The notes: a model not told the origin generated them from the sequence alone. A DNA stretch of 14,375 nucleotides from a virus (IMGVR_UViG_2690316131_000006), one strand, 5' to 3'; shown: positions 7,088-14,375, counted from the stretch's first letter. Numbers and translations are program-made.

Positions 7088-7219
7088 ATTCATTACGATA
7101 TGGGAATTCCCATATCGGGTAAAAACGGTTTGCGGTAAAGCGAGAGTTAAGTAGAATTGCTGCGGGTGCTTGAGGCTGTCTGCCTCGGGCATGCCACCGT
7201 AAGGCAGACAGAGAAAAGC

Positions 7220-7285
7220 CCCAGTTAACATTACGCGTCCTGCAAGACGCCTAACATTAATCTGAGGCCAATTTCATGCTAGACA
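7220..7285 (-). ncRNA. sok: Sok-like antisense RNA of the hok locus (approximate position)
   Basis: Minus-strand promoter-like TTGCCT-17 nt-TAACCT at about 7291..7319 pointing leftward into the hok leader; inferred from hok/sok architecture, ends not determined. Confidence 0.3.
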
Positions 7286-7332
7286 TATGTAGGTTAGCCT
7301 CTTACGCGCCGAAAGGCAAGGAGAAGCAGGCT

Positions 7333-7488
7333 ATGAAGCAGCAAAAGGCGATGTTAATCGCCCTGATCGTCATCTGTATCACCGTCATAGTGACGGCACT
7401 GGTAACGAGGAAAGACCTCTGCGAGGTACGAATCCGAACCGGCCAGACGGAGGTCGCTGTCTTCACAGCTTACGAACCTGAGGAGTAA
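7333..7488 (+). CDS. hok: Hok/Gef-family type I toxin, 51 aa
   Basis: MKQQKAMLIALIVICITVIVTALVTRKDLCEVRIRTGQTEVAVFTAYEPEE: transmembrane helix plus conserved C-terminal motif; AAGGAG Shine-Dalgarno; in-frame upstream ATG at 7276 could be a mok-like start; 3' stem-loops and terminator downstream. Confidence 0.9.
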   Translation: MKQQKAMLIALIVICITVIVTALVTRKDLCEVRIRTGQTEVAVFTAYEPEE

Positions 7489-7557
7489 GAGACCCGGCGA
7501 GGGAGAAATCCCTCGCCACCTCTGATGAATCAGGCATCCTCAACGCACCCGCACTTA

Positions 7558-7583
7558 ACCCGCTTCGGCGGGTTTTGTTTTTT
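7558..7583 (+). terminator. Intrinsic terminator of the hok transcript
   Basis: ACCCGC-ttcg-GCGGGT hairpin followed by TTTGTTTTTT. Confidence 0.7.
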
Positions 7584-7655
7584 CCTGGCATTCTGGTTTA
7601 CAATTCGCACGCCAGCCTGAACAACTGGCACCTGCTGCGCCAGCAGAGACAACCG

Positions 7656-7934
7656 ATGGCGCACGATACCAAATTATACAATTCTGATGATTCTGCCGTC
7701 TTTGCCAGCAGGCGCGGACGGTGTTTTCACGCATTCAAATCTGACTGGTACCAGCATCCCCCATGCACTGAAGAACAGGCCGAATGGCTCATTCAGTGTT
7801 ACCGCAGGCGCGGATGCGAGGTTAAAAAAGCCCTTAGCCTCGACTACCGTCACTGGATAATCTCCGTCAGGCTCCCTTACTCCGAACGGCCACCGCGTCC
7901 GTCCCGCACATTCCAGCAACGGATCTGGAGGTAA
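7656..7934 (+). CDS. Hypothetical nin-region protein, 92 aa
   Basis: Only in-frame ATG after the hok terminator; weak Shine-Dalgarno; stop adjacent to the next start. Confidence 0.45.
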   Translation: MAHDTKLYNSDDSAVFASRRGRCFHAFKSDWYQHPPCTEEQAEWLIQCYRRRGCEVKKALSLDYRHWIISVRLPYSERPPRPSRTFQQRIWR

Positions 7935-7935
7935 T

Positions 7936-8985
7936 GTGCGGGTATTACTTCGACCTGTTCTGGTACCGGAACTCGGTCTGGTTATCGTTAAGCCAGGCCG
8001 TGAATCAATGTCAGCATTCCATAACGGCAGAATACTGGTGGAGCCGGAACCAAAAAGCATGCGAGCTCTGCCGTCCGGGGTTGTACCTGCCGTTCACCAG
8101 CCGCTGGCGGAAGATAAATCACTACTGCCATTTTTCAGCGATGAGCGGGTGAGCCGTGCTGCGGGTGGCGCTGGTGCACTGTCTGACTGGTTATTACGTC
8201 ACGTGAAATCCTGCCAGTGGCTACACGGTGATTATCATCACAGCGAAACCGTCATTCACCGTTACGGTACCGGCGCAATGGTGTTGTGCTGGCACTGCGA
8301 CAACCAGCTGCGTGACCAGACATCCGAATCACTCGAGCAACTTGCTCATCAAAACCTGTCAGCATGGATGATTGACGTCATCGGTCACGCAATAAGCGGT
8401 ACGCAGGAGCGTGAATTATCTCTGGCTGAATTATCCTGGTGGGCGGTCCGCAATCAGGTGGCGGACGCGCTACCGGAAGCGGTATTACGTCGTTCGCTGG
8501 GGTTGCGTGCGGAAAAAATCCGCTCCATGTACCGTGAAAGCGACATCGTACCGGGAGAGCAGACCGCCACCAGCATACTGAAACAGCGCACAAAAAATCT
8601 TGCGCCGCTGCCTCACGCCCACCAGCAACAGAACCCACCACAGGAAAAGACGGTGGTCAGCATTGCCGTTGATCCTGAGTCTCCGGAATCTTTCATGAAA
8701 CGACCTAAACGTCGCCGCTGGGTTAACGAGAAATACACTCGCTGGGTGAAGACACAGCCGTGTGCGTGTTGTGGTAAGCCAGCCGACGATCCCCATCACC
8801 TGATTGGTCATGGTCAGGGCGGAATGGGGACAAAATCTCACGATATTTTCACGCTACCGCTGTGTCGGGAGCATCACAACGAGCTTCATGCGGATCCGCT
8901 GGCGTTCGAAGAAAAGCATGGTTCTCAGGTTGATTTAATTTTTCGTTTTCTTGATCACGCCTTTGCAACTGGCGTGCTTGGGTAA
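7936..8985 (+). CDS. DUF968/YdfU-like protein with C-terminal HNH-like zinc-binding motif
   Basis: GTG start 5 nt after GGAGG; C-terminus ...QPCACCGKPADDPHHLIGHGQG...LPLCREHHNELH has Cys pairs with His-His as in HNH nucleases. Confidence 0.65.
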   Translation: MRVLLRPVLVPELGLVIVKPGRESMSAFHNGRILVEPEPKSMRALPSGVVPAVHQPLAEDKSLLPFFSDERVSRAAGGAGALSDWLLRHVKSCQWLHGDYHHSETVIHRYGTGAMVLCWHCDNQLRDQTSESLEQLAHQNLSAWMIDVIGHAISGTQERELSLAELSWWAVRNQVADALPEAVLRRSLGLRAEKIRSMYRESDIVPGEQTATSILKQRTKNLAPLPHAHQQQNPPQEKTVVSIAVDPESPESFMKRPKRRRWVNEKYTRWVKTQPCACCGKPADDPHHLIGHGQGGMGTKSHDIFTLPLCREHHNELHADPLAFEEKHGSQVDLIFRFLDHAFATGVLG

Positions 8986-8997
8986 AAGAGGTGACTG

Positions 8998-9372
8998 ATG
9001 CTCATAGATTTGGTTTTACCTTACCCGCCGACGGTGAACACTTACTGGCGACGCCGTGGCAGCACATATTTTATCTCGGAGGAGGGAAAGCGTTATCGCC
9101 GGGCTGTGGCGCTTATTGTTCGCCAGCAGCGGCTGAAATTAAGCCTGTCCGGAAGGCTGGCGATAAAGATTATTGCCGAGCCACCGGATAAGCGCCGCCG
9201 TGACTTGGACAATATTCTGAAAGCGCCGCTGGATGCGCTGACGCATGCGGGGTTGCTAATGGACGATGAGCAGTTTGATGAAATCAATATCGTTCGTGCT
9301 CAGCCAGTATCTGGTGGACGTCTGGGGGTGAAGATTTACCCCATAATGCTTGAAGGGCAGGTCAAAAAATGA
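8998..9372 (+). CDS. rusA: RusA-family Holliday junction resolvase
   Basis: 124 aa; PPTVNTYWRRRG...DKRRRDLDNILKAPLDALTHAGLLMDDEQ matches the RusA pattern (…RRDLDN…DAL…DD…); AGAGG Shine-Dalgarno. Confidence 0.85.
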   Translation: MLIDLVLPYPPTVNTYWRRRGSTYFISEEGKRYRRAVALIVRQQRLKLSLSGRLAIKIIAEPPDKRRRDLDNILKAPLDALTHAGLLMDDEQFDEINIVRAQPVSGGRLGVKIYPIMLEGQVKK

Positions 9373-10190
9373 AACTGGAAGATTTACCGAAATACTACTC
9401 CCCAAAATCCCCCGGCCTGACTGATGCATCGGCCTCAACGTCGAAAGATACGCTGAGTATCACTGATGTGATGGCTGCGCAGGGCATGACACAGAATTGG
9501 GCTGAGATGGGGTTTTCTGCGTTCCTTGGGAAAATGGGCATTAGTATGAATGACAGAGAGCGGGCAACAGAATTGCTGACAGAATATGCACTCAGTCGGT
9601 GTGATCGCGTGGCGGCGTTAAGAAAACTCCCGGCAGAAATAAAACCGGCAGTGATGCGTATTATGGCTTCGTATGCGTTTGAAGATTATGCCCGTAGCGC
9701 GGCGAGCAAAAAACAGTGCCCCTGTTGTCACGGAAAAAAATTTATTGAAAGCGAGGTTTTTACAAACAAGATCCAGTATCCGGATGGTAAGCCGCCAGTG
9801 TGGGCAAAGTGCACAAAAGGCGTGTATCCGTCTTACTGGGAGGAATGGAAAAAAGTCAGGGAGGTGGTAAAAGTTGCCTGTCCGGAGTGTGGAGGGAAGG
9901 GGGAGGTTTCCACCGCCTGTAAAGATTGTCGTGGGCGCGGTGTTGCCATTCATCGTGAAGAGTCGGTAAAACGTGGTATGCCTGTTATCAGAGACTGCCA
10001 GCGTTGTGGTGGTCGTGGCTATGAAAGATTACCTTCAACGGAGGCATTTAATGCCATATGTAATGTAACCGATGCCATATCTCTTGATACATGGAAAAAA
10101 ACAGTTAAACGTTTTTACGATACGCTGGTGGTGCAGTTTGATATTGAAGAAGCATGGGCAGAACAACAACTGAAAAAGGTGACCAGATAG
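9369..10190 (+). CDS. Putative late-gene antiterminator (Q-like, QuuQ-type position) with four DnaJ-type CxxCxGxG zinc-finger repeats
   Basis: ATGA overlap with rusA; CPCCHGKK, CPECGGKG, CKDCRGRG, CQRCGGRG; immediately followed by a strong promoter and a terminator. Call is by position. Confidence 0.55.
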   Translation: MKLEDLPKYYSPKSPGLTDASASTSKDTLSITDVMAAQGMTQNWAEMGFSAFLGKMGISMNDRERATELLTEYALSRCDRVAALRKLPAEIKPAVMRIMASYAFEDYARSAASKKQCPCCHGKKFIESEVFTNKIQYPDGKPPVWAKCTKGVYPSYWEEWKKVREVVKVACPECGGKGEVSTACKDCRGRGVAIHREESVKRGMPVIRDCQRCGGRGYERLPSTEAFNAICNVTDAISLDTWKKTVKRFYDTLVVQFDIEEAWAEQQLKKVTR

Positions 10191-10192
10191 CT

Positions 10193-10223
10193 TTGTTGAT
10201 TTTTCCCGAATCTGTGGTAAAAT
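10193..10223 (+). promoter_or_regulatory. Late promoter (pR'-like) with extended -10 (TGgTAAAAT)
   Basis: TTGTTGA -35-like, about 17-18 nt spacer, TGgTAAAAT at 10215..10223, directly after the Q-like stop. Confidence 0.5.
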
Positions 10224-10270
10224 TGCCCTAACGATGGGCGTTTTATGCCTGACGTTAGAAGATTTTTTAC

Positions 10271-10294
10271 ACCCGTCGCCAGGCGGGTTTTTTT
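10271..10294 (+). terminator. tR'-like intrinsic terminator about 45-65 nt downstream of the late promoter
   Basis: ACCCG-tcgccagg-CGGGT hairpin followed by seven T. Confidence 0.55.
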
Positions 10295-10416
10295 ATGACT
10301 GAAATCACGCCAGTACAGTAAACGCGCTGGTGGTTGTGAATACCGGTCTTTCAGCTTGCTGGCTTTTTCGACAAGAGTTATTGGTATGTCACGTTAACCA
10401 GAAAAGGGAAAAAGAC

Positions 10417-10614
10417 ATGCTAAAACAGCAGGATATGACCGAAACCGCCAGAGTGGTGTTTAATGAATTAAGCGTCACCGAACCGGCGACCGTCGGGGAA
10501 ATTGCGCAGAATACTTACCTTTCACGCGAACGTTGCCAGTTAATACTGACCCAGCTTGTTATGGCGGGTCTGGCAGATTATCAGTTCGGTTGTTACAGAC
10601 GCCTTCCGCAGTGA
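10417..10614 (+). CDS. Small winged-helix-like protein, 65 aa
   Basis: ATG 10417 with AAGGG upstream; sequence ...TVGEIAQNTYLSRERCQLILTQLVMAGLADY; its 3' end overlaps a terminator hairpin. Confidence 0.45.
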   Translation: MLKQQDMTETARVVFNELSVTEPATVGEIAQNTYLSRERCQLILTQLVMAGLADYQFGCYRRLPQ

Positions 10615-10626
10615 AGGTTTTTTTTA
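10602..10626 (+). terminator. Intrinsic terminator
   Basis: CCTTC-cgcagt-GAAGG hairpin followed by nine T. Confidence 0.5.
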
Positions 10627-10765
10627 TTTGTGGTAATGGGCGGCTGGTGGGTGTTAGCGGCACCTGCCAGCCATCTGCTCATGCGTTGGGGTCACAAGCA
10701 AACCTCAGGCCCATCTGCTTTGCGCAAAAGCAGAACGAGCCTATCAGAGAAGTGCTTACTGATCT

Positions 10766-11791
10766 ATGGTCAATACTGTAAAAATATCCAGTTGTGAATT
10801 AATCAACGCTGATTGCCTGGAATTTATCCAGACCTTACCGGAAAACTCTGTCGATCTGATAGTCACAGACCCGCCATACTTTAAAGTGAAGCCCGAAGGC
10901 TGGGATAACCAGTGGAAGGGCGACGATGATTACCTGAAATGGCTGGACCAGTGTCTGGCGCAGTTCTGGCGGTTACTGAAGCCTGCCGGAAGTCTTTACC
11001 TGTTCTGTGGTCATCGCCTGGCATCTGATATCGAAATCATGATGCGCGAACGCTTTAACGTGCTGAACCATATCATCTGGGCGAAGCCGTCCGGACGCTG
11101 GAACGGGTGCAGTAAGGAAAGCCTGCGGGCGTATTTTCCCGCCACAGAGCGTATTCTGTTTGCTGAACATTATCAGGGGCCATACCAGCCAAAAAATGGC
11201 GGCTATGCGGCAAAGGAGCGCGAGCTTAAACAGCATGTGATGTCTCCGCTGATTTCTTACTTTCGTGATGCGCGTGAATCACTGGGGATAACGTCGAAAC
11301 AGATAGCGGAAGCCACCGGAAAGAAAAACATGGTGTCGCACTGGTTTGGTGCCCGCCAGTGGCAGTTACCGAACGAGGATGATTACAGAAAACTGCAGGC
11401 GTTGTTTGCGCGTGTTGCAGCAGAAAAACATCAACGCGGGGAACTGGAAAAGCCACACCACCAGCTGGTCAGCACATACAGTGAACTTAACCGGCAATAT
11501 GCCAGCCTGCTGGAGGAGTACAAATCTTTGCGGCGTTATTTTTCTGTATCGGCTGCTGTTCCGTATACGGATGTCTGGATGTATAAGCCTGTACAGTATT
11601 ATCCGGGCAAACACCCCTGTGAAAAACCGGCAGATATGTTGCGTCAGATAATAGAGGCCAGCAGTCGTCCGGGTGATTTGGTTGCCGACTTTTTTATGGG
11701 GTCAGGTTCCACGATAAAAGCCGCGCTTTCGCTTGGTCGTCGGGCAATAGGCGTTGTGAGCTTGAGGCTGAACGGTTTGAGCAGACGGTGA
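10766..11791 (+). CDS. DNA methyltransferase, beta-class amino-methyltransferase (N6-adenine or N4-cytosine)
   Basis: N-terminal motif IV DLIVTDPPYF and C-terminal motif I DLVADFFMGSGST (order IV then I); 341 aa; no adjacent restriction endonuclease seen. Confidence 0.85.
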   Translation: MVNTVKISSCELINADCLEFIQTLPENSVDLIVTDPPYFKVKPEGWDNQWKGDDDYLKWLDQCLAQFWRLLKPAGSLYLFCGHRLASDIEIMMRERFNVLNHIIWAKPSGRWNGCSKESLRAYFPATERILFAEHYQGPYQPKNGGYAAKERELKQHVMSPLISYFRDARESLGITSKQIAEATGKKNMVSHWFGARQWQLPNEDDYRKLQALFARVAAEKHQRGELEKPHHQLVSTYSELNRQYASLLEEYKSLRRYFSVSAAVPYTDVWMYKPVQYYPGKHPCEKPADMLRQIIEASSRPGDLVADFFMGSGSTIKAALSLGRRAIGVVSLRLNGLSRR

Positions 11792-11938
11792 GCGAGATAA
11801 GAGAAATTCTGACGTGTAAAGCTGTTGATTGATTAATTAATGCTTATTTTTTCATAAGTCTTGTTGCAATATATAAGTATGGGGTGTAAAGTTGTTCTCG
11901 AAAATAATCATGTTTTCTCACGAATCAGAGGGGGGATA

Positions 11939-12199
11939 ATGATTGAGGTTCGATGGACAAGGACAGCCCTGAAGCAGTTACTTCGTGTGGATACGCGGTA
12001 TCGGCAGGCGATAAAGGATAAGGTCGGTGCGCTAAAGGATTTTCCTCTGGTAGCCATGGATTTTAAAAAGCTATCAGGGAGTGACAATCGATTCCGTTTG
12101 AGGGTCGGCGTGTACAGGGTTATTTTTGATGTTGAGGATGGTGATCCTGTTGTCCTGGATATTAAGGAAATTAAGCGCAGAAGCACAACCACATACTAA
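11939..12199 (+). CDS. RelE/ParE-superfamily type II toxin (HigB-like, toxin-first order)
   Basis: 86 aa; ...NRFRLRVGVYRVIFDVEDGDPVVLDIKEIKRR typical of the RelE/ParE fold; GAGGGGGG Shine-Dalgarno. Confidence 0.8.
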   Translation: MIEVRWTRTALKQLLRVDTRYRQAIKDKVGALKDFPLVAMDFKKLSGSDNRFRLRVGVYRVIFDVEDGDPVVLDIKEIKRRSTTTY

Positions 12200-12259
12200 G
12201 GGAGGCTGGCGGGAGACCGCCAGTTTGCTGAACGACATTCAATCGCGAAAGGCAATGAT

Positions 12260-12634
12260 ATGAAAAACAGTGTCCAGTTTATTACTGATAATGCCGGTGT
12301 TAGAACCGGGGTCATTATGTCAGTTGCTGAATATGAACGGCTGTTAAGTCTGGCAGATCCTGATGATGATTTTGAAAGCATCCAGTATGAAGCCGGAGAG
12401 AATGACAATGAAACAATACCTCATGAAGTAGTATCCATCATGATTGATGATGATGTGTCATTGTTGGCAGCATGGCGGATTTACAGGCGAATGACTCAAC
12501 AGGAAGTGGCGGAGCGCCTGGGGGTTAAACAGTCAGCCGTATCTCAGTTTGAGAGAGCAGGAGCTCCGCGAAAATCAACACTGGAAAAACTGGCTGAGAT
12601 TTACAACTGCCGACCAAATCAGTTGGCTGATTAA
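12260..12634 (+). CDS. HigA-like antitoxin with C-terminal XRE helix-turn-helix
   Basis: 124 aa; ...MTQQEVAERLGVKQSAVSQFERAGAPRKSTLEKLAEIY; directly downstream of the toxin. Confidence 0.8.
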   Translation: MKNSVQFITDNAGVRTGVIMSVAEYERLLSLADPDDDFESIQYEAGENDNETIPHEVVSIMIDDDVSLLAAWRIYRRMTQQEVAERLGVKQSAVSQFERAGAPRKSTLEKLAEIYNCRPNQLAD

Positions 12635-12779
12635 TCCTGAGTTTGGTTTTCGTAGCGATTGCATTTTTCTTATCTGCTTGCCGTTGTAGGTAGCGTGTAT
12701 TTGCATGTTGTTTTGTAGTTAACCTTATGGTTGGCTGAATTTTGTTCATCAATAAAAAATATCCCTCTCTGATCTTTAA

Positions 12780-12805
12780 GGTTCGCTTTGGCGGACCTTT
12801 TTTTT
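12780..12805 (+). terminator. Intrinsic terminator
   Basis: GGTTCGC-tttg-GCGGACC (one G·U pair) followed by eight T. Confidence 0.55.
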
Positions 12806-12941
12806 ATTTCCGCGCCACGCCCGGCGTACATCAAAAACCACAGAGCCTTTCAGGGGTGAGCTTACGGGATGGTCAGTGTGACTTTCTCTGTGGGCTGGTC
12901 ACCCCCGGGCGCAGGCTCACCCACTAAAAGGAAAAGTCACG

Positions 12942-13373
12942 ATGTTTGGTATTTTCAAAAAGAAAACCCGCAGAGCAGCAACTGAAATTAAAAAGTTTGA
13001 GAAACGCGATCTGGCACAGGCGGTTATTAATGCTGCCTACCTGGTGGCCTATGCAGATGGTGAATGTGAGACTTCAGAGAAAGCGAAGATCGAACAGGTA
13101 TTACGTAACCAGCCAGCATTGTCCGCATTTACGTCAGAAATTAATGCCATCAGTGCCACGATCACAGGTCAGCTTGACACCAATTTTAAAATTGGTCGTC
13201 GTGCAGCGTTGCGTGAAATTGAAGATGTGAAACACGATACGCGTGAAGCGGAAGACGTGCTGGATGTGGCGGTGGCCATTGCTGAAGCAGATGGTGAAAT
13301 TGAGCCGGAAGAGCGTAAGGTTCTGGAAGAGATTGCTGGTGTTCTTGGCCTGCGACTGGAGAACCACCTGTGA
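12942..13373 (+). CDS. TerB-family (tellurite-resistance TerB-like) protein, 143 aa
   Basis: Two acidic ADGE motifs (AYADGECETSEKAKIEQ and AEADGEIEPEERKVLEEI) typical of TerB; AAAAGGAAAAG upstream of ATG. Confidence 0.75.
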   Translation: MFGIFKKKTRRAATEIKKFEKRDLAQAVINAAYLVAYADGECETSEKAKIEQVLRNQPALSAFTSEINAISATITGQLDTNFKIGRRAALREIEDVKHDTREAEDVLDVAVAIAEADGEIEPEERKVLEEIAGVLGLRLENHL

Positions 13374-13537
13374 CGGTAAAACTGCGTCTGGCCGCTGTGG
13401 CACTCCTGCTGTTTCTGGTGGTGATGGTGGATTTCACCAGCAGGATCATGTCGGTGCTGGCGGATGGAGTGCTGGTCTGCGGCATTGTGGTATTGCTGTG
13501 GCCGGTGATAAAAAGAAACAGCCTGCATAATGCTTGA
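13370..13537 (+). CDS. Possible small membrane protein, 55 aa, translationally coupled to the TerB-like gene
   Basis: GTG overlaps the TerB stop (GTGA); VTVKLRLAAVALLLFLVVMVDFTSRIMSVLADGVLVCGIVVLLWPVIKRNSLHNA has two hydrophobic segments. Not in the ORF track as such. Confidence 0.35.
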   Translation: MTVKLRLAAVALLLFLVVMVDFTSRIMSVLADGVLVCGIVVLLWPVIKRNSLHNA

Positions 13538-13704
13538 TTTTTTTGTTTGCTGTTTATTAAAAACACTTCTGCATGGTGAATCCCCCTGTGCGGTGGGGCA
13601 ATCAGCAAGAAGGAATATGGGGTAATCGCGGATTCAGGTGCTGATACTGAATTCACCGGGAGGCACCCGGCACCATGCAAGAAAAAGAATGTGCATGCAA
13701 ACAT

Positions 13705-13728
13705 GCCCCTCTCCGGAGGGGCTTTTTT
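13705..13728 (+). terminator. Intrinsic terminator
   Basis: Perfect GCCCCTC-tccg-GAGGGGC hairpin followed by six T. Confidence 0.65.
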
Positions 13729-13732
13729 ATGG

Positions 13733-13760
13733 GTAAAAAAATGCCCGAATGGGTTCGGGC
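13733..13760 (-). terminator. Convergent (minus-strand) terminator-like hairpin
   Basis: GCCCGAA-tggg-TTCGGGC, which on the minus strand is followed by TTTTTTT (13733..13739). Confidence 0.4.
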
Positions 13761-13944
13761 AATAGCATGAGATACTGATATTGTTGTGTTGTTATCGTGT
13801 GGATTTTAACCAGGGTTTATCAGGCTGCGCAACTGCGTGGCCTTTTTTCATTTCTTGGGCTGTAGTCCCCGTGTGTCATTCAGGCTTCCGGACTACAGCC
13901 CACTCCATATCTGATTTAATACACTATCCCGGCCGGGAGGAATA

Positions 13945-14375
13945 ATGACATTTAAACATTATGATGTTGTCAGGGCGGCGTCGCCGTCAGACCTTGCGGA
14001 AAAGCTGACACACAAACTGAAAGAGGGCTGGCAGCCGTTTGGTAGTCCGGTGGCCATAACCCCTTATACCCTGATGCAGGCGATTGCAGCAGAAGGTGAT
14101 GTGGTCGTCAGTGGTGCAACTGAGCCGGAGTGGTACTACGTCATCGTACTGGCCGGGCAGTCCAATGCAATGGCTTACGGTGAAGGGCTTCCGCTTCCGG
14201 ATTCATACGATGCTCCGGATCCGCGCATTAAACAGCTGGCGCGCCGCAGTACAGTGACGCCGGGTGGGGCTGCCTGCAGATATAACGATATTATTCCGGC
14301 CGACCACTGCCTGCATGATGTGCAGGATATGAGTACGCTGAATCATCCGAAGGCAGACCTGAGCAAAGGGCAGTA
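13945..14375 (+). CDS. Partial (5' end only) NanS-p-like esterase: N-terminal DUF1737-like domain followed by the start of an SGNH/sialate O-acetylesterase domain
   Basis: GGGAGGA Shine-Dalgarno; MTFKHYDVVRAASPSDLAEKLTHKLKEGWQPFGSP... then ...YYVIVLAGQSNAMAYGEG (GQSN block); open to the window end. Confidence 0.7.
   Translation, partial: MTFKHYDVVRAASPSDLAEKLTHKLKEGWQPFGSPVAITPYTLMQAIAAEGDVVVSGATEPEWYYVIVLAGQSNAMAYGEGLPLPDSYDAPDPRIKQLARRSTVTPGGAACRYNDIIPADHCLHDVQDMSTLNHPKADLSKGQ

Follow-up and report, generated by a model that had tools for sequence, protein, structure and literature searches.

A probable accessory segment of the late operon at the stx position of a non-Stx lambda-like prophage

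The segment and its closest described relatives

Accessory genes (morons) lodged in the late-operon slot behind the promoter pR' are a known kind of feature in lambdoid phages, reportedly since Juhala in 2000. The closest described counterpart of the locus studied here is the stx2 locus of Stx2a phages, which carry Shiga toxin (Stx) genes. In Stx2_EH1910 (LC567834) and Stx2_EH2246 (LC567837), the order is Q, pR' with the terminator tR', an open reading frame (ORF) of 65 amino acids (aa), a methylase gene, the slot, an STnc100-type small RNA (sRNA) gene, nanS-p, and the lysis genes. Our subject is region 10196-13945 of the viral stretch IMGVR_UViG_2690316131_000006 (14,375 nucleotides [nt]; this whole stretch is called the window). 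An earlier reading made from the sequence alone, here termed the original prediction, had placed in it three accessory modules, each with its own terminator: a methyltransferase gene, a HigBA-like toxin-antitoxin (TA) pair, and a TerB-like module (tciA-tciB, or tciAB). We put at about 0.8 the probability that the region belongs, as an accessory segment, to the late operon of a lambda-like, non-Stx prophage and that it is a layered mosaic, not a set of three equivalent morons.

The window shares its frame with the Stx2 phages. Stx2_EH1910 has rusA and the same 273-aa quuQ as the window, Stx2_EH2246 has the same order with a different Q, and the DNA that flanks the slot is 85-96% identical to that of the Stx2 phages. 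The difference lies in the slot, which holds tRNA-Met/Arg/Arg, stx2A, stx2B, and iraM in Stx2_EH1910 and a RelE/Xre cassette, tciAB, and the AgvB gene in the window. The predicted location of the island at the literal stx position was thus confirmed. The whole island (10267-14375) is also present, at 96.4% identity, in the non-Stx phage PPyecE_EH1910 (LC567835), where it is annotated with DNA methylase, plasmid stabilization protein, transcriptional regulator, TciA/TerB-like protein, and yjhS. PPyecE_EH1910 differs in having a 126-aa Q, other upstream replication genes, and an intact methylase gene (1065 bp). The island is already deposited and annotated. Modestly new are three points: the stx slot is occupied by a rare RelE/Xre cassette, the methylase can be placed in the M.EcoGII family and is frameshifted, and terminators coincide with recombination joints. 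Current understanding of lambdoid phages is unchanged. The two phage types do offer a natural comparison, in which one Q/promoter/methylase/nanS-p frame carries Shiga toxin in one phage and TA plus tciAB in another; since the frame is shared and the cargo differs, the frame's own contribution to cargo expression is testable.

The slot is filled differently in different relatives. In close relatives, it is empty or is occupied by tRNAs, stx2AB, and iraM, by tRNAs and tciAB, or by the TA pair together with another gene. Mosaic junctions, as determined by pairwise BLAST with eight relatives, lie at 10267-10283 (in the tR' hairpin, where homology to relatives with other Q types begins), about 11795 (methylase 3' end), 12779 (start of the third terminator), and 13934-13945 (start of nanS-p). 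The 983-bp block between the second and third junctions (11796-12778), which is the TA cassette, has in its place tRNA-Ile and tRNA-Arg in O111:H11 8D and tRNAs plus stx2AB in Stx2 phages. In SfV and ESDR8, the order is Q, tR', the small ORF, methylase, and holin, with nothing inserted, so that the actual insertion slot lies between methylase and holin. By synteny with the Stx2 phages, SfV, ESDR8, JLK-2012, O111:H11 8D, and tcmA_3, the accessory genes of the window lie between Q/pR'/tR' and the lysis genes, where these relatives have different genes or none.

The distribution of the parts was determined in 5426 complete E. coli genomes at a coverage of at least 80%. The small ORF and the methylase were found together in 2061 of the 5426 genomes, tciAB in 790, the TA cassette in 11, and the whole island in 9. 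The counts thus grade from an accessory block that is semi-conserved down to cargo that is rare, and they are not those of a core late operon. The variable, exchangeable content that had been expected was borne out by this census and by the direct passage from methylase to holin in SfV and ESDR8. Synteny with Stx and non-Stx lambdoid phages, which had been named as the check, agreed with it for the TA pair and tciAB, which are variable and not core; the block of small ORF and methylase is widespread and semi-conserved.

Terminators are enriched in the region. A strict terminator was defined by at least 7 pairs, at least 5 G-C pairs, and at least 6 T. Positions 10200-13950 contain four such sites on the plus strand, compared to 0.017 in dinucleotide shuffles, and none of 300 shuffles reached four. 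The other 10 kb of the window contain one per strand. With a loose definition, there were 23 sites in the window and 16 ± 4 in shuffles; this excess is not persuasive, and the strict count was therefore used. The terminators originally placed at 10602, 12780, and 13705 do exist as plus-strand hairpins with T-runs at 10601-10618, 12778-12799, and 13705-13722, together with a tR'-like one at 10271-10288; the hairpin at 10601 is outside the strict four. The assignment of one terminator to each module did not hold. The 10601 hairpin lies before the methylase and not after it, both the loose and the strict scans found no terminator in the methylase-toxin gap, the 12778 terminator is shared, and the one at 13705 is the 3' end of an sRNA gene.

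Late control, methylase, TA cassette, tciAB, and sRNA genes

We observed the anatomy, homologies, synteny, and distribution of the region; its expression logic and every biochemical activity are inferred. All named features of region 10196-13945 are on the plus strand except AgvB. Together with Q and nanS-p, they are as follows.

9369-10190, plus strand: Q, 273 aa (PF03589 at 4.7e-50)
10196-10223, plus strand: late promoter pR' (TTGATT, 16 nt, TAAAAT, upstream TG, then tgccctAACGATggg; 9/12 matches in the promoter scan)
10230-10295, plus strand: predicted pR' leader RNA, about 65 nt, stopping at the tR' hairpin (10271-10288) and its U-run
10417-10614, plus strand: 65-aa ORF (phrog_331, 1.4e-37; three predicted helices)
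10601-10626, plus strand: weaker terminator-like hairpin (stem-loop 10601-10618; 6 pairs, 3 G-C, then 8 T), overlapping the stop codon of the 65-aa ORF
10627-10765, plus strand: conserved, structured methylase 5' leader, containing a Chi site at 10643-10650
10766-11830, plus strand: M.EcoGI/GII-family beta-class N6-adenine DNA methyltransferase, orphan, frameshifted (PF01555, 2e-41; PADLOC MTase_II, 7e-148)
11843-11892, plus strand: probable TA promoter/operator, with the palindrome CTTAT-N6-ATAAG, a TATAAG block, and a candidate promoter TTGCAA(11864)-17-TAAAGT(11887)
11939-12199, plus strand: RelE-family toxin, 86 aa (PF05016, 33.2 bits, cut-off 23; phrog_1213 'RelE-like toxin', 7e-21)
12203-12226, plus strand: G+C-rich hairpin immediately 3' of the stop codon of the toxin gene, within the 60 nt that separate this gene from the antitoxin gene
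12260-12634, plus strand: antitoxin, 124 aa (PF01381, 4e-12; phrog_7241, full length, 5e-51)
12778-12807, plus strand: strong intrinsic terminator at the TA/tciAB junction (hairpin 12778-12799; 9 pairs; -13.4 kcal/mol)
12942-13373, plus strand: tciA, TerB domain, 143 aa (PF05099, 60.9 bits, cut-off 24.4; phrog_632/phrog_1470 for the tciA-tciB pair)
13370-13537, plus strand: tciB, DUF3927, 55 aa, hydrophobic (PF13064, 60.3 bits, cut-off 25), overlapping tciA by 4 nt
13542-13734, plus strand: STnc100/EcOnc27-type sRNA (RF02076, 142.5 bits, threshold 47, model 1-206), with its terminator at 13705-13722
13736-13797, minus strand: AgvB anti-sRNA, a GcvB sponge (RF02702, 96.5 bits, threshold 56), with its terminator at 13761-13742
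13822-13843, plus strand: further strong terminator (9 pairs, 6 G-C; -14.9 kcal/mol), matching no gene or Rfam family
13945-14375, plus strand: 5' part of a nanS-p/yjhS-type sialate O-acetylesterase gene (PF08410 DUF1737, 2e-16; phrog_143, 2e-94), running off the window

This inventory contains every gene that had been named, namely the PF01555 methyltransferase, the PF05016 toxin upstream of the PF01381 antitoxin, the PF05099 TerB gene with its DUF3927 partner, and the DUF1737/nanS-p-type gene from 13945. The 65-aa ORF, the two sRNA genes, the 13822 terminator, and the methylase frameshift had been missed.

The late control unit is of the lambda type. Q is 32% identical to lambda Q from end to end (E 9e-41) and contains an inserted zinc-ribbon segment. 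Directly 3' of this lambda-family gene lies pR', with the same layout as lambda pR' (TTGACT-17-TAAATT-tgactcAACGATggg; J02459). A -10-like AACGAT is located at +1, and an intrinsic terminator follows shortly downstream; antitermination itself is predicted from these sequence features. The putative transcription start, 10230, was set by analogy to lambda. The predicted leader RNA has a fold of -21.3 kcal/mol (z = -2.8). Short terminated pR' RNAs are known, namely lambda 6S RNA and, in Stx phages, the regulator StxS (PMC7547250). By likeness to them (constitutive late promoter, AACGAT at +1, early stop), a short RNA would be produced in the lysogen. Its predicted length of about 65 nt differs from the 194 nt of the lambda RNA and the 258 nt of StxS, which is processed to 74 nt. 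A terminator-like site at 10224-10240 overlaps the initially transcribed region of pR' (AACGATGGG) and was taken as a part of the leader hairpin, not as a terminator. In the mechanism we propose, pR' would fire constitutively, transcription in the lysogen would stop at tR' after about 65 nt, and a weaker second hairpin would follow after the 65-aa ORF.

The 65-aa ORF is annotated in all relatives compared. Its product gave a weak TrmB/winged-helix signal (PF01978 at E 0.003, under the curated cut-off) and a poor AlphaFold2 (AF2) single-sequence model with a predicted local distance difference test (pLDDT) score of 53. In the hairpin at its end, the stem is kept in Stx2 phages with an altered loop, two pairs are changed on both sides in ESDR8, and the T-run is degraded in ESDR8 and SfV. 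Since the hairpin overlaps the stop codon of this ORF, it lies upstream of the methylase.

The described relative of the methylase, M.EcoGII, methylates adenine in any context, is harmful when constitutive, and is unexpressed from its prophage in normal growth (PMC5778455). That it is switched on at prophage induction was suggested by its authors (PMC5778455). Like M.EcoGII and M.EcoGI, which were described from E. coli O104:H4 prophages, the methylase in the window is an orphan, prophage-borne enzyme with an N-terminal DPPY and a C-terminal FxGxG, and it is 86% identical (93% positives) to M.EcoGII over 331 aa. The M.EcoGII sequence was a machine-read supplement of PMC11551740, in which a few residues are possibly misread. 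Phage 1720a-02, named in PMC5778455, has the same block as the window. The motif order of the beta class (DPPY, target recognition domain, FxGxG) is present, with TDPPY at residues 34-38 and FFMGSGS near residue 310. In contrast to M.EcoGII, the copy in the window is frameshifted, and its activity and specificity are predicted by homology.

As read, the methylase ORF ends at 11791. Comparison with E110019 and the alignment revealed a TG insertion at 11755-11756, which turns ...AIGVELE... into ...AIGVVSLRLNGLSRR*. The frame shifts after ...RRAIGV, the ELE... tail is lost, and the AdoMet-binding C terminus lacks the conserved Glu after FxGxG/IGVE. Removal of TG restores a protein of 354 aa ending in ...AIGVELEAERF.... 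The methylase copy of FORC_042 is marked 'frameshifted' by PGAP, and that of E110019 is intact. The enzyme is probably inactive in the window because the 2-bp insertion removes the Glu of the AdoMet motif. Either selection against leaky expression or a sequencing artefact may lie behind the insertion.

The methylase 5' leader of 140 nt is more conserved than coding DNA, with a mean column identity of 87% among eight relatives and long invariant blocks. Its predicted fold, in which the AUG region is base-paired, has a z of -3.1; in the leader hairpin at 10642-10672, three one-sided wobble changes were found and no pair was broken. The leader may serve in translational or processing control of a toxic enzyme. 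Neither a promoter nor a terminator of its own was found for the methylase in the promoter and terminator scans. By analogy to its family, the methylase most likely works late and Q-dependently against restriction and is not cargo of the lysogen, because the family is silent in lysogens and toxic, the gene lies behind tR' and a second hairpin, and its leader is conserved. Behind both stops, it would be made only when Q-modified polymerase reads through, and it would then methylate progeny DNA against restriction.

The TA cassette has features of both RelBE and HigBA systems. The closest described examples are E. coli RelBE, M. jannaschii RelBE3 (3BPQ), and the HigBA2-like architecture of V. 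cholerae. In an alignment of the toxin with E. coli RelE (4V7K, phmmer), the positions of K52, K54, R61, and R81 are all R, and the C-terminal Y corresponds to RelE Y87 once the alignment is extended by three residues; the pairwise E value is weak (0.06). A RelE fold is a candidate: the AF2 single-sequence model was poor (pLDDT of 61), and its top Foldseek matches were all RelE toxins (RelE3, T. thermophilus RelE, Mtb RelE2, and P. horikoshii RelE), with template modeling (TM) scores of only about 0.44. The antitoxin consists of an N-terminal RelB/Phd-like segment, an acidic linker, and a C-terminal Xre-type helix-turn-helix (HTH). The RelB trait is seen in its homologs, the N-terminal part of which reaches the cut-off of the RelB-like model PF18506 with 27-35 bits; the protein of the window scores 14.6 bits. 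The HigBA trait is the gene order, with the toxin before an Xre-type HTH antitoxin. This order is the same in the homologous cassettes, and an 86-aa PF05016 toxin lies upstream of the antitoxin in 5/5 cassettes examined in full. The cassette differs from both systems: the HigB models (PF05015, PF09907) did not match the toxin, for which PF05016 was the sole Pfam hit at E ≤ 0.01 and no NCBIfam hit was obtained, the antitoxin is not a ribbon-helix-helix RelB, and the 60-nt gap holds a conserved hairpin. The name HigBA-like, as originally used, is thus a fair one for the architecture and the Xre antitoxin, not for family membership, the toxin being RelE-type.

Several properties set the cassette apart from its surroundings. 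Its GC content is 0.43, compared to 0.50 in the flanks. Two blocks, CTTATTTTT and TATAAG, stand unchanged in the otherwise divergent DNA before the homologous cassettes of E. coli, Salmonella, and Photorhabdus, and the CTTAT-N6-ATAAG palindrome occurs only once in the window. The hairpin after the toxin stop codon is kept in position, with a different sequence, in the cassettes of all three. The Salmonella and Photorhabdus cassettes came from a large protein search; when the antitoxin was compared with a single genome of each species, only distant HTH matches were obtained. In Salmonella prophages, the direct neighbors of the cassette are an unrelated Q (PF06323) and holin, one on each side, and in Photorhabdus it is found in non-phage islands adjoining type VI secretion system (T6SS)/PAAR or LemA genes. 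Because of the low GC content, the conserved upstream blocks, the hairpin after the toxin gene, and the other contexts, we regard the cassette as an autonomous, mobile moron. It fills the place that tRNAs or tRNAs plus stx2AB have in relatives and, with a control region of its own, would be autoregulated and expressed in the lysogen, possibly with a role in addiction or abortive infection. Of the properties typical of a moron, the deviant GC content, a conserved upstream motif, and the terminator at 12778 were observed, and the promoter is putative.

Across the cassettes, the gap between toxin and antitoxin genes measures 60-80 nt, which is unusual for type II systems. The G-run at 11926-11931 in the ribosome binding site of the toxin gene is GGGGGG here and GGGGGGG in E110019 (one G fewer in the window). 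A minus-strand site in the toxin gene (12087-12060), the best promoter-like site in the window, was considered as a promoter of an antisense RNA and rejected as chance: its -35 is not kept in the tcmA_3, Salmonella, and Photorhabdus homologs, and its -10 follows from FKK codons.

The 12778 hairpin is found directly 3' of the last tRNA in O111:H11 8D and JLK-2012, with a compensatory change of U-A to C-G in the stem. It is also kept in tcmA_3, although an unrelated gene and another type of lysis cassette come after the TA pair there. Its conservation beside different neighbors shows that it is a shared joint and not the property of one module.

The next genes resemble P1 tciA-tciB-tciC and ter TerB (2JXU), since the gene of a TerB protein precedes that of a DUF3927 membrane peptide. 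TciA consists of one TerB domain and matches structure 2JXU over its full length (E 9e-8). In contrast to P1, the window has no tciC, and its TciA is about 41% identical to P1-type TciA; terZ/A/C/D/E partners were not found in the window, which thus lacks a ter operon (terZABCDE). 'Tellurite resistance' as a name for TciA reflects homology only. Jumbo phages of Erwinia and Salmonella (genus Machinavirus, e.g., pSal-SNUABM-04) also have the tciA-tciB pair, with 66-76% identity and beside tRNA genes. In P1-like phages (JL22), which also have tRNAs and a DNA methylase near tciAB, the order is dmt, tRNAs, tciA-tciB-tciC, tRNA. That the pair recurs beside tRNAs in phages of unrelated types points to a role in the phage cycle, which speaks against the original label of defence or virulence cargo for tciAB. 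No sigma-70-like promoter was recognised upstream of tciA in the scan, so that tciAB, following the strong terminator at 12778, is probably expressed late. The GC-rich tciA leader (12800-12941) was considered as a structured element, but its fold is no better than that of shuffles (z = -1.4), and it is not claimed. The combination of tRNAs and tciAB recurs across a jumbo phage (pSal-SNUABM-04, 1184-2421), a P1-like phage (JL22, 1-3276), and a lambdoid phage (JLK-2012, 4756-5750).

The end of the segment corresponds to a described arrangement. In enterohemorrhagic E. coli prophages, convergent Hfq-bound sRNAs are located between a moron coding sequence and a conserved downstream ORF (Tree et al. 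2014, PMC4104026). Of these, AgvB acts as a sponge for GcvB and promotes growth in bovine rectal mucus; EcOnc27 is located 3' of stx2B (PMC4104026). Members of the STnc100 family in Stx2 phages lie just 3' of stx2B and overlap the Hfq-bound EcOnc27 (PMC12370729, PMC12711010). The window resembles the AgvB/AsxR arrangement with EcOnc27 in that the same slot position contains convergent AgvB and STnc100/EcOnc27-type genes on opposite strands. AgvB agrees with the family consensus at all of 62 nt, has the CACAACA GcvB-target motif in its 5' part, ends with an intrinsic terminator, and lies between a moron coding sequence and a conserved ORF. Fragments of the STnc100-type gene match the DNA after stx2B in a relative. 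The difference is that the pair here follows tciB, not stx2B, in a non-Stx prophage. By homology, these two convergent sRNA genes with their own terminators would act as regulators of the slot that are expressed in the lysogen. They are the best-documented lysogen-expressed elements of the slot, and they are invisible to an ORF-based reading.

The terminator at 13822 is 100% conserved in four relatives and might be where a further sRNA ends, perhaps one of the PasA/PasC type. On the opposite strand, the likely -35 region of the AgvB promoter overlaps with it. Downstream, the nanS-p-type gene is annotated as yjhS/SASA esterase in relatives.

Competing readings of the segment

Whether the slot carries cargo for the lysogen was a central point of the original prediction, which read the region as three independent defence or virulence morons with their own terminators and possibly their own promoters, each benefiting the lysogen. 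In its favor, the terminators exist and exceed chance, relatives have stx in the slot, and PHROGs places the toxin, TciA, and TciB in the class 'moron, auxiliary metabolic gene and host takeover'. For the TA cassette, which behaves as an autonomous unit, the claim may hold. It does not extend to the methylase, the family of which (M.EcoGI/GII) is toxic and silent in lysogens (PMC5778455) and which is present in 38% of the genomes and beside the lysis genes in minimal phages. The positions of the terminators, with none between methylase and TA, one before the methylase, and the 13705 one belonging to an sRNA, do not divide the region into three such units. Moreover, tciAB is shared with a jumbo Machinavirus phage, and PADLOC reported no defence system for the toxin, TciA, or TciB, matching the antitoxin as a generic HTH only and the methylase as MTase_II. 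We consider this reading unlikely. Not all content of the slot seems to be there for the benefit of the lysogen; the methylase has the appearance of a lytic-cycle function, as tciAB probably does. The opposite view, that these are conserved core late genes of a phage group and no cargo at all, draws on the 2061 genomes with small ORF and methylase, on the highly conserved leader, and on the abutment of this block to the lysis cassette in SfV and ESDR8. It is still less probable, since lambda and JLK-2012 have no methylase and the slot content differs or is missing in close relatives; for the TA pair (11 genomes) and tciAB (790 genomes) it is largely refuted by the census. Decay of a cryptic prophage, with the methylase frameshift as erosion and the DNA without function, ranks equally low. 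It could account for the shared frameshift in the window and FORC_042 and for the portal gene of the FORC_042 prophage, which is also annotated as frameshifted, but all other ORFs of the region are intact and positions 7200-14375 of the window are at least 99.6% identical to E110019, whose methylase is intact. The identity of AgvB to the functional consensus and the conservation of terminators and leader also argue against decay. That methylase and TA genes form one unit, a modification-plus-toxin addiction system analogous to restriction-modification, is very improbable. The genes are adjacent with no terminator between them, and the junction inside the methylase 3' end means that TA-bearing phages share a distinct C-terminal tail of the methylase. 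At most 11 of the 2061 genomes with the methylase block have the TA cassette, however, and the cassette occurs without the methylase directly after Q in Salmonella and beside T6SS genes in Photorhabdus. RelE-type toxins act on mRNA, not on DNA.

The preferred reading, an accessory late-operon segment with a layered mosaic structure, has several points against it. The pR' start point, the read-through, and the TA promoter are all deduced, and the candidate for the latter scores 8/12, below the threshold of the scan. A 'double lock' on the methylase is not general, given the weakness of the 10601 hairpin and the lack of a conserved T-run in SfV and ESDR8. Non-specific activity has been established for M.EcoGII and is a prediction for the protein studied here (86% identical), and the sequencing status of the TG insertion is uncertain, though FORC_042 has the same frameshift. 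The structure models of the toxin and the 65-aa ORF are of low confidence, and a sigma-70 promoter before tciA may have escaped recognition. A speculative extension, to which we give little weight, is that terminators, sRNA genes, and a local Chi cluster (10124, 10326, 10643) might, beyond serving as insulators, be conserved joints for cargo swaps among co-resident lambdoid prophages. The slot would then be a terminator-delimited cassette system and the RelE/Xre cassette a rider of late-operon leaders, switched by Q read-through; the rider idea draws on the occurrence of the cassette directly behind two unrelated Q types, in E. coli and Salmonella.

Context of the segment in the window

According to its ORFs and Pfam matches, the window is the early-right and late-control region of a lambda-like prophage. 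It contains, in this order, a CI-like repressor gene (1884-2657, minus strand), a P22 Cro-like gene, replication genes, hok/sok, DUF968, RusA, and Q. None of the complete E. coli genomes of the collection is identical to the whole window; the best, FORC_042, has a coverage of 89%. The island region is 99.9% identical to E110019, FORC_042, 14EC017, and CD45. The immunity region (1884-2865) encodes an HTH_3 plus S24 CI-like repressor and the P22 Cro-like protein, and FORC_042 instead has racR/ydaS-type genes. As judged from sequence, the window derives from a different mosaic than the FORC_042 prophage.

A hok/sok type I TA locus is located at 7164-7488, with a sok match of 114 bits and the Hok ORF at 7276-7488 (PF01848). 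Behind it, stretch 7497-7578 contains a strong terminator (7557-7574) and a sub-threshold isrK match (27.7 bits vs. 50). At the other end of the window, a DicF sRNA (323-374, minus strand; 75.8 bits) adjoins a DicB-like ORF, and this end looks like the Qin prophage. A second STnc100-like match at 116-325 (minus strand) is weak (34 bits, below the threshold). No tRNA genes were found in the window.

The sequence of Chi (GCTGGTGG) occurs seven times in the window, at 3122, 10124, 10326, and 10643 on the plus strand and at 8567, 8619, and 11458 on the minus strand. Shuffled sequences contained 0.57 ± 0.76 sites, and none of 200 reached seven; codon usage and GC skew were uncontrolled in these shuffles. 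Three co-oriented sites lie within 520 bp around pR', namely in the end of Q, in the region after tR', and in the methylase leader. The last of these, at 10643, is invariant across eight relatives.

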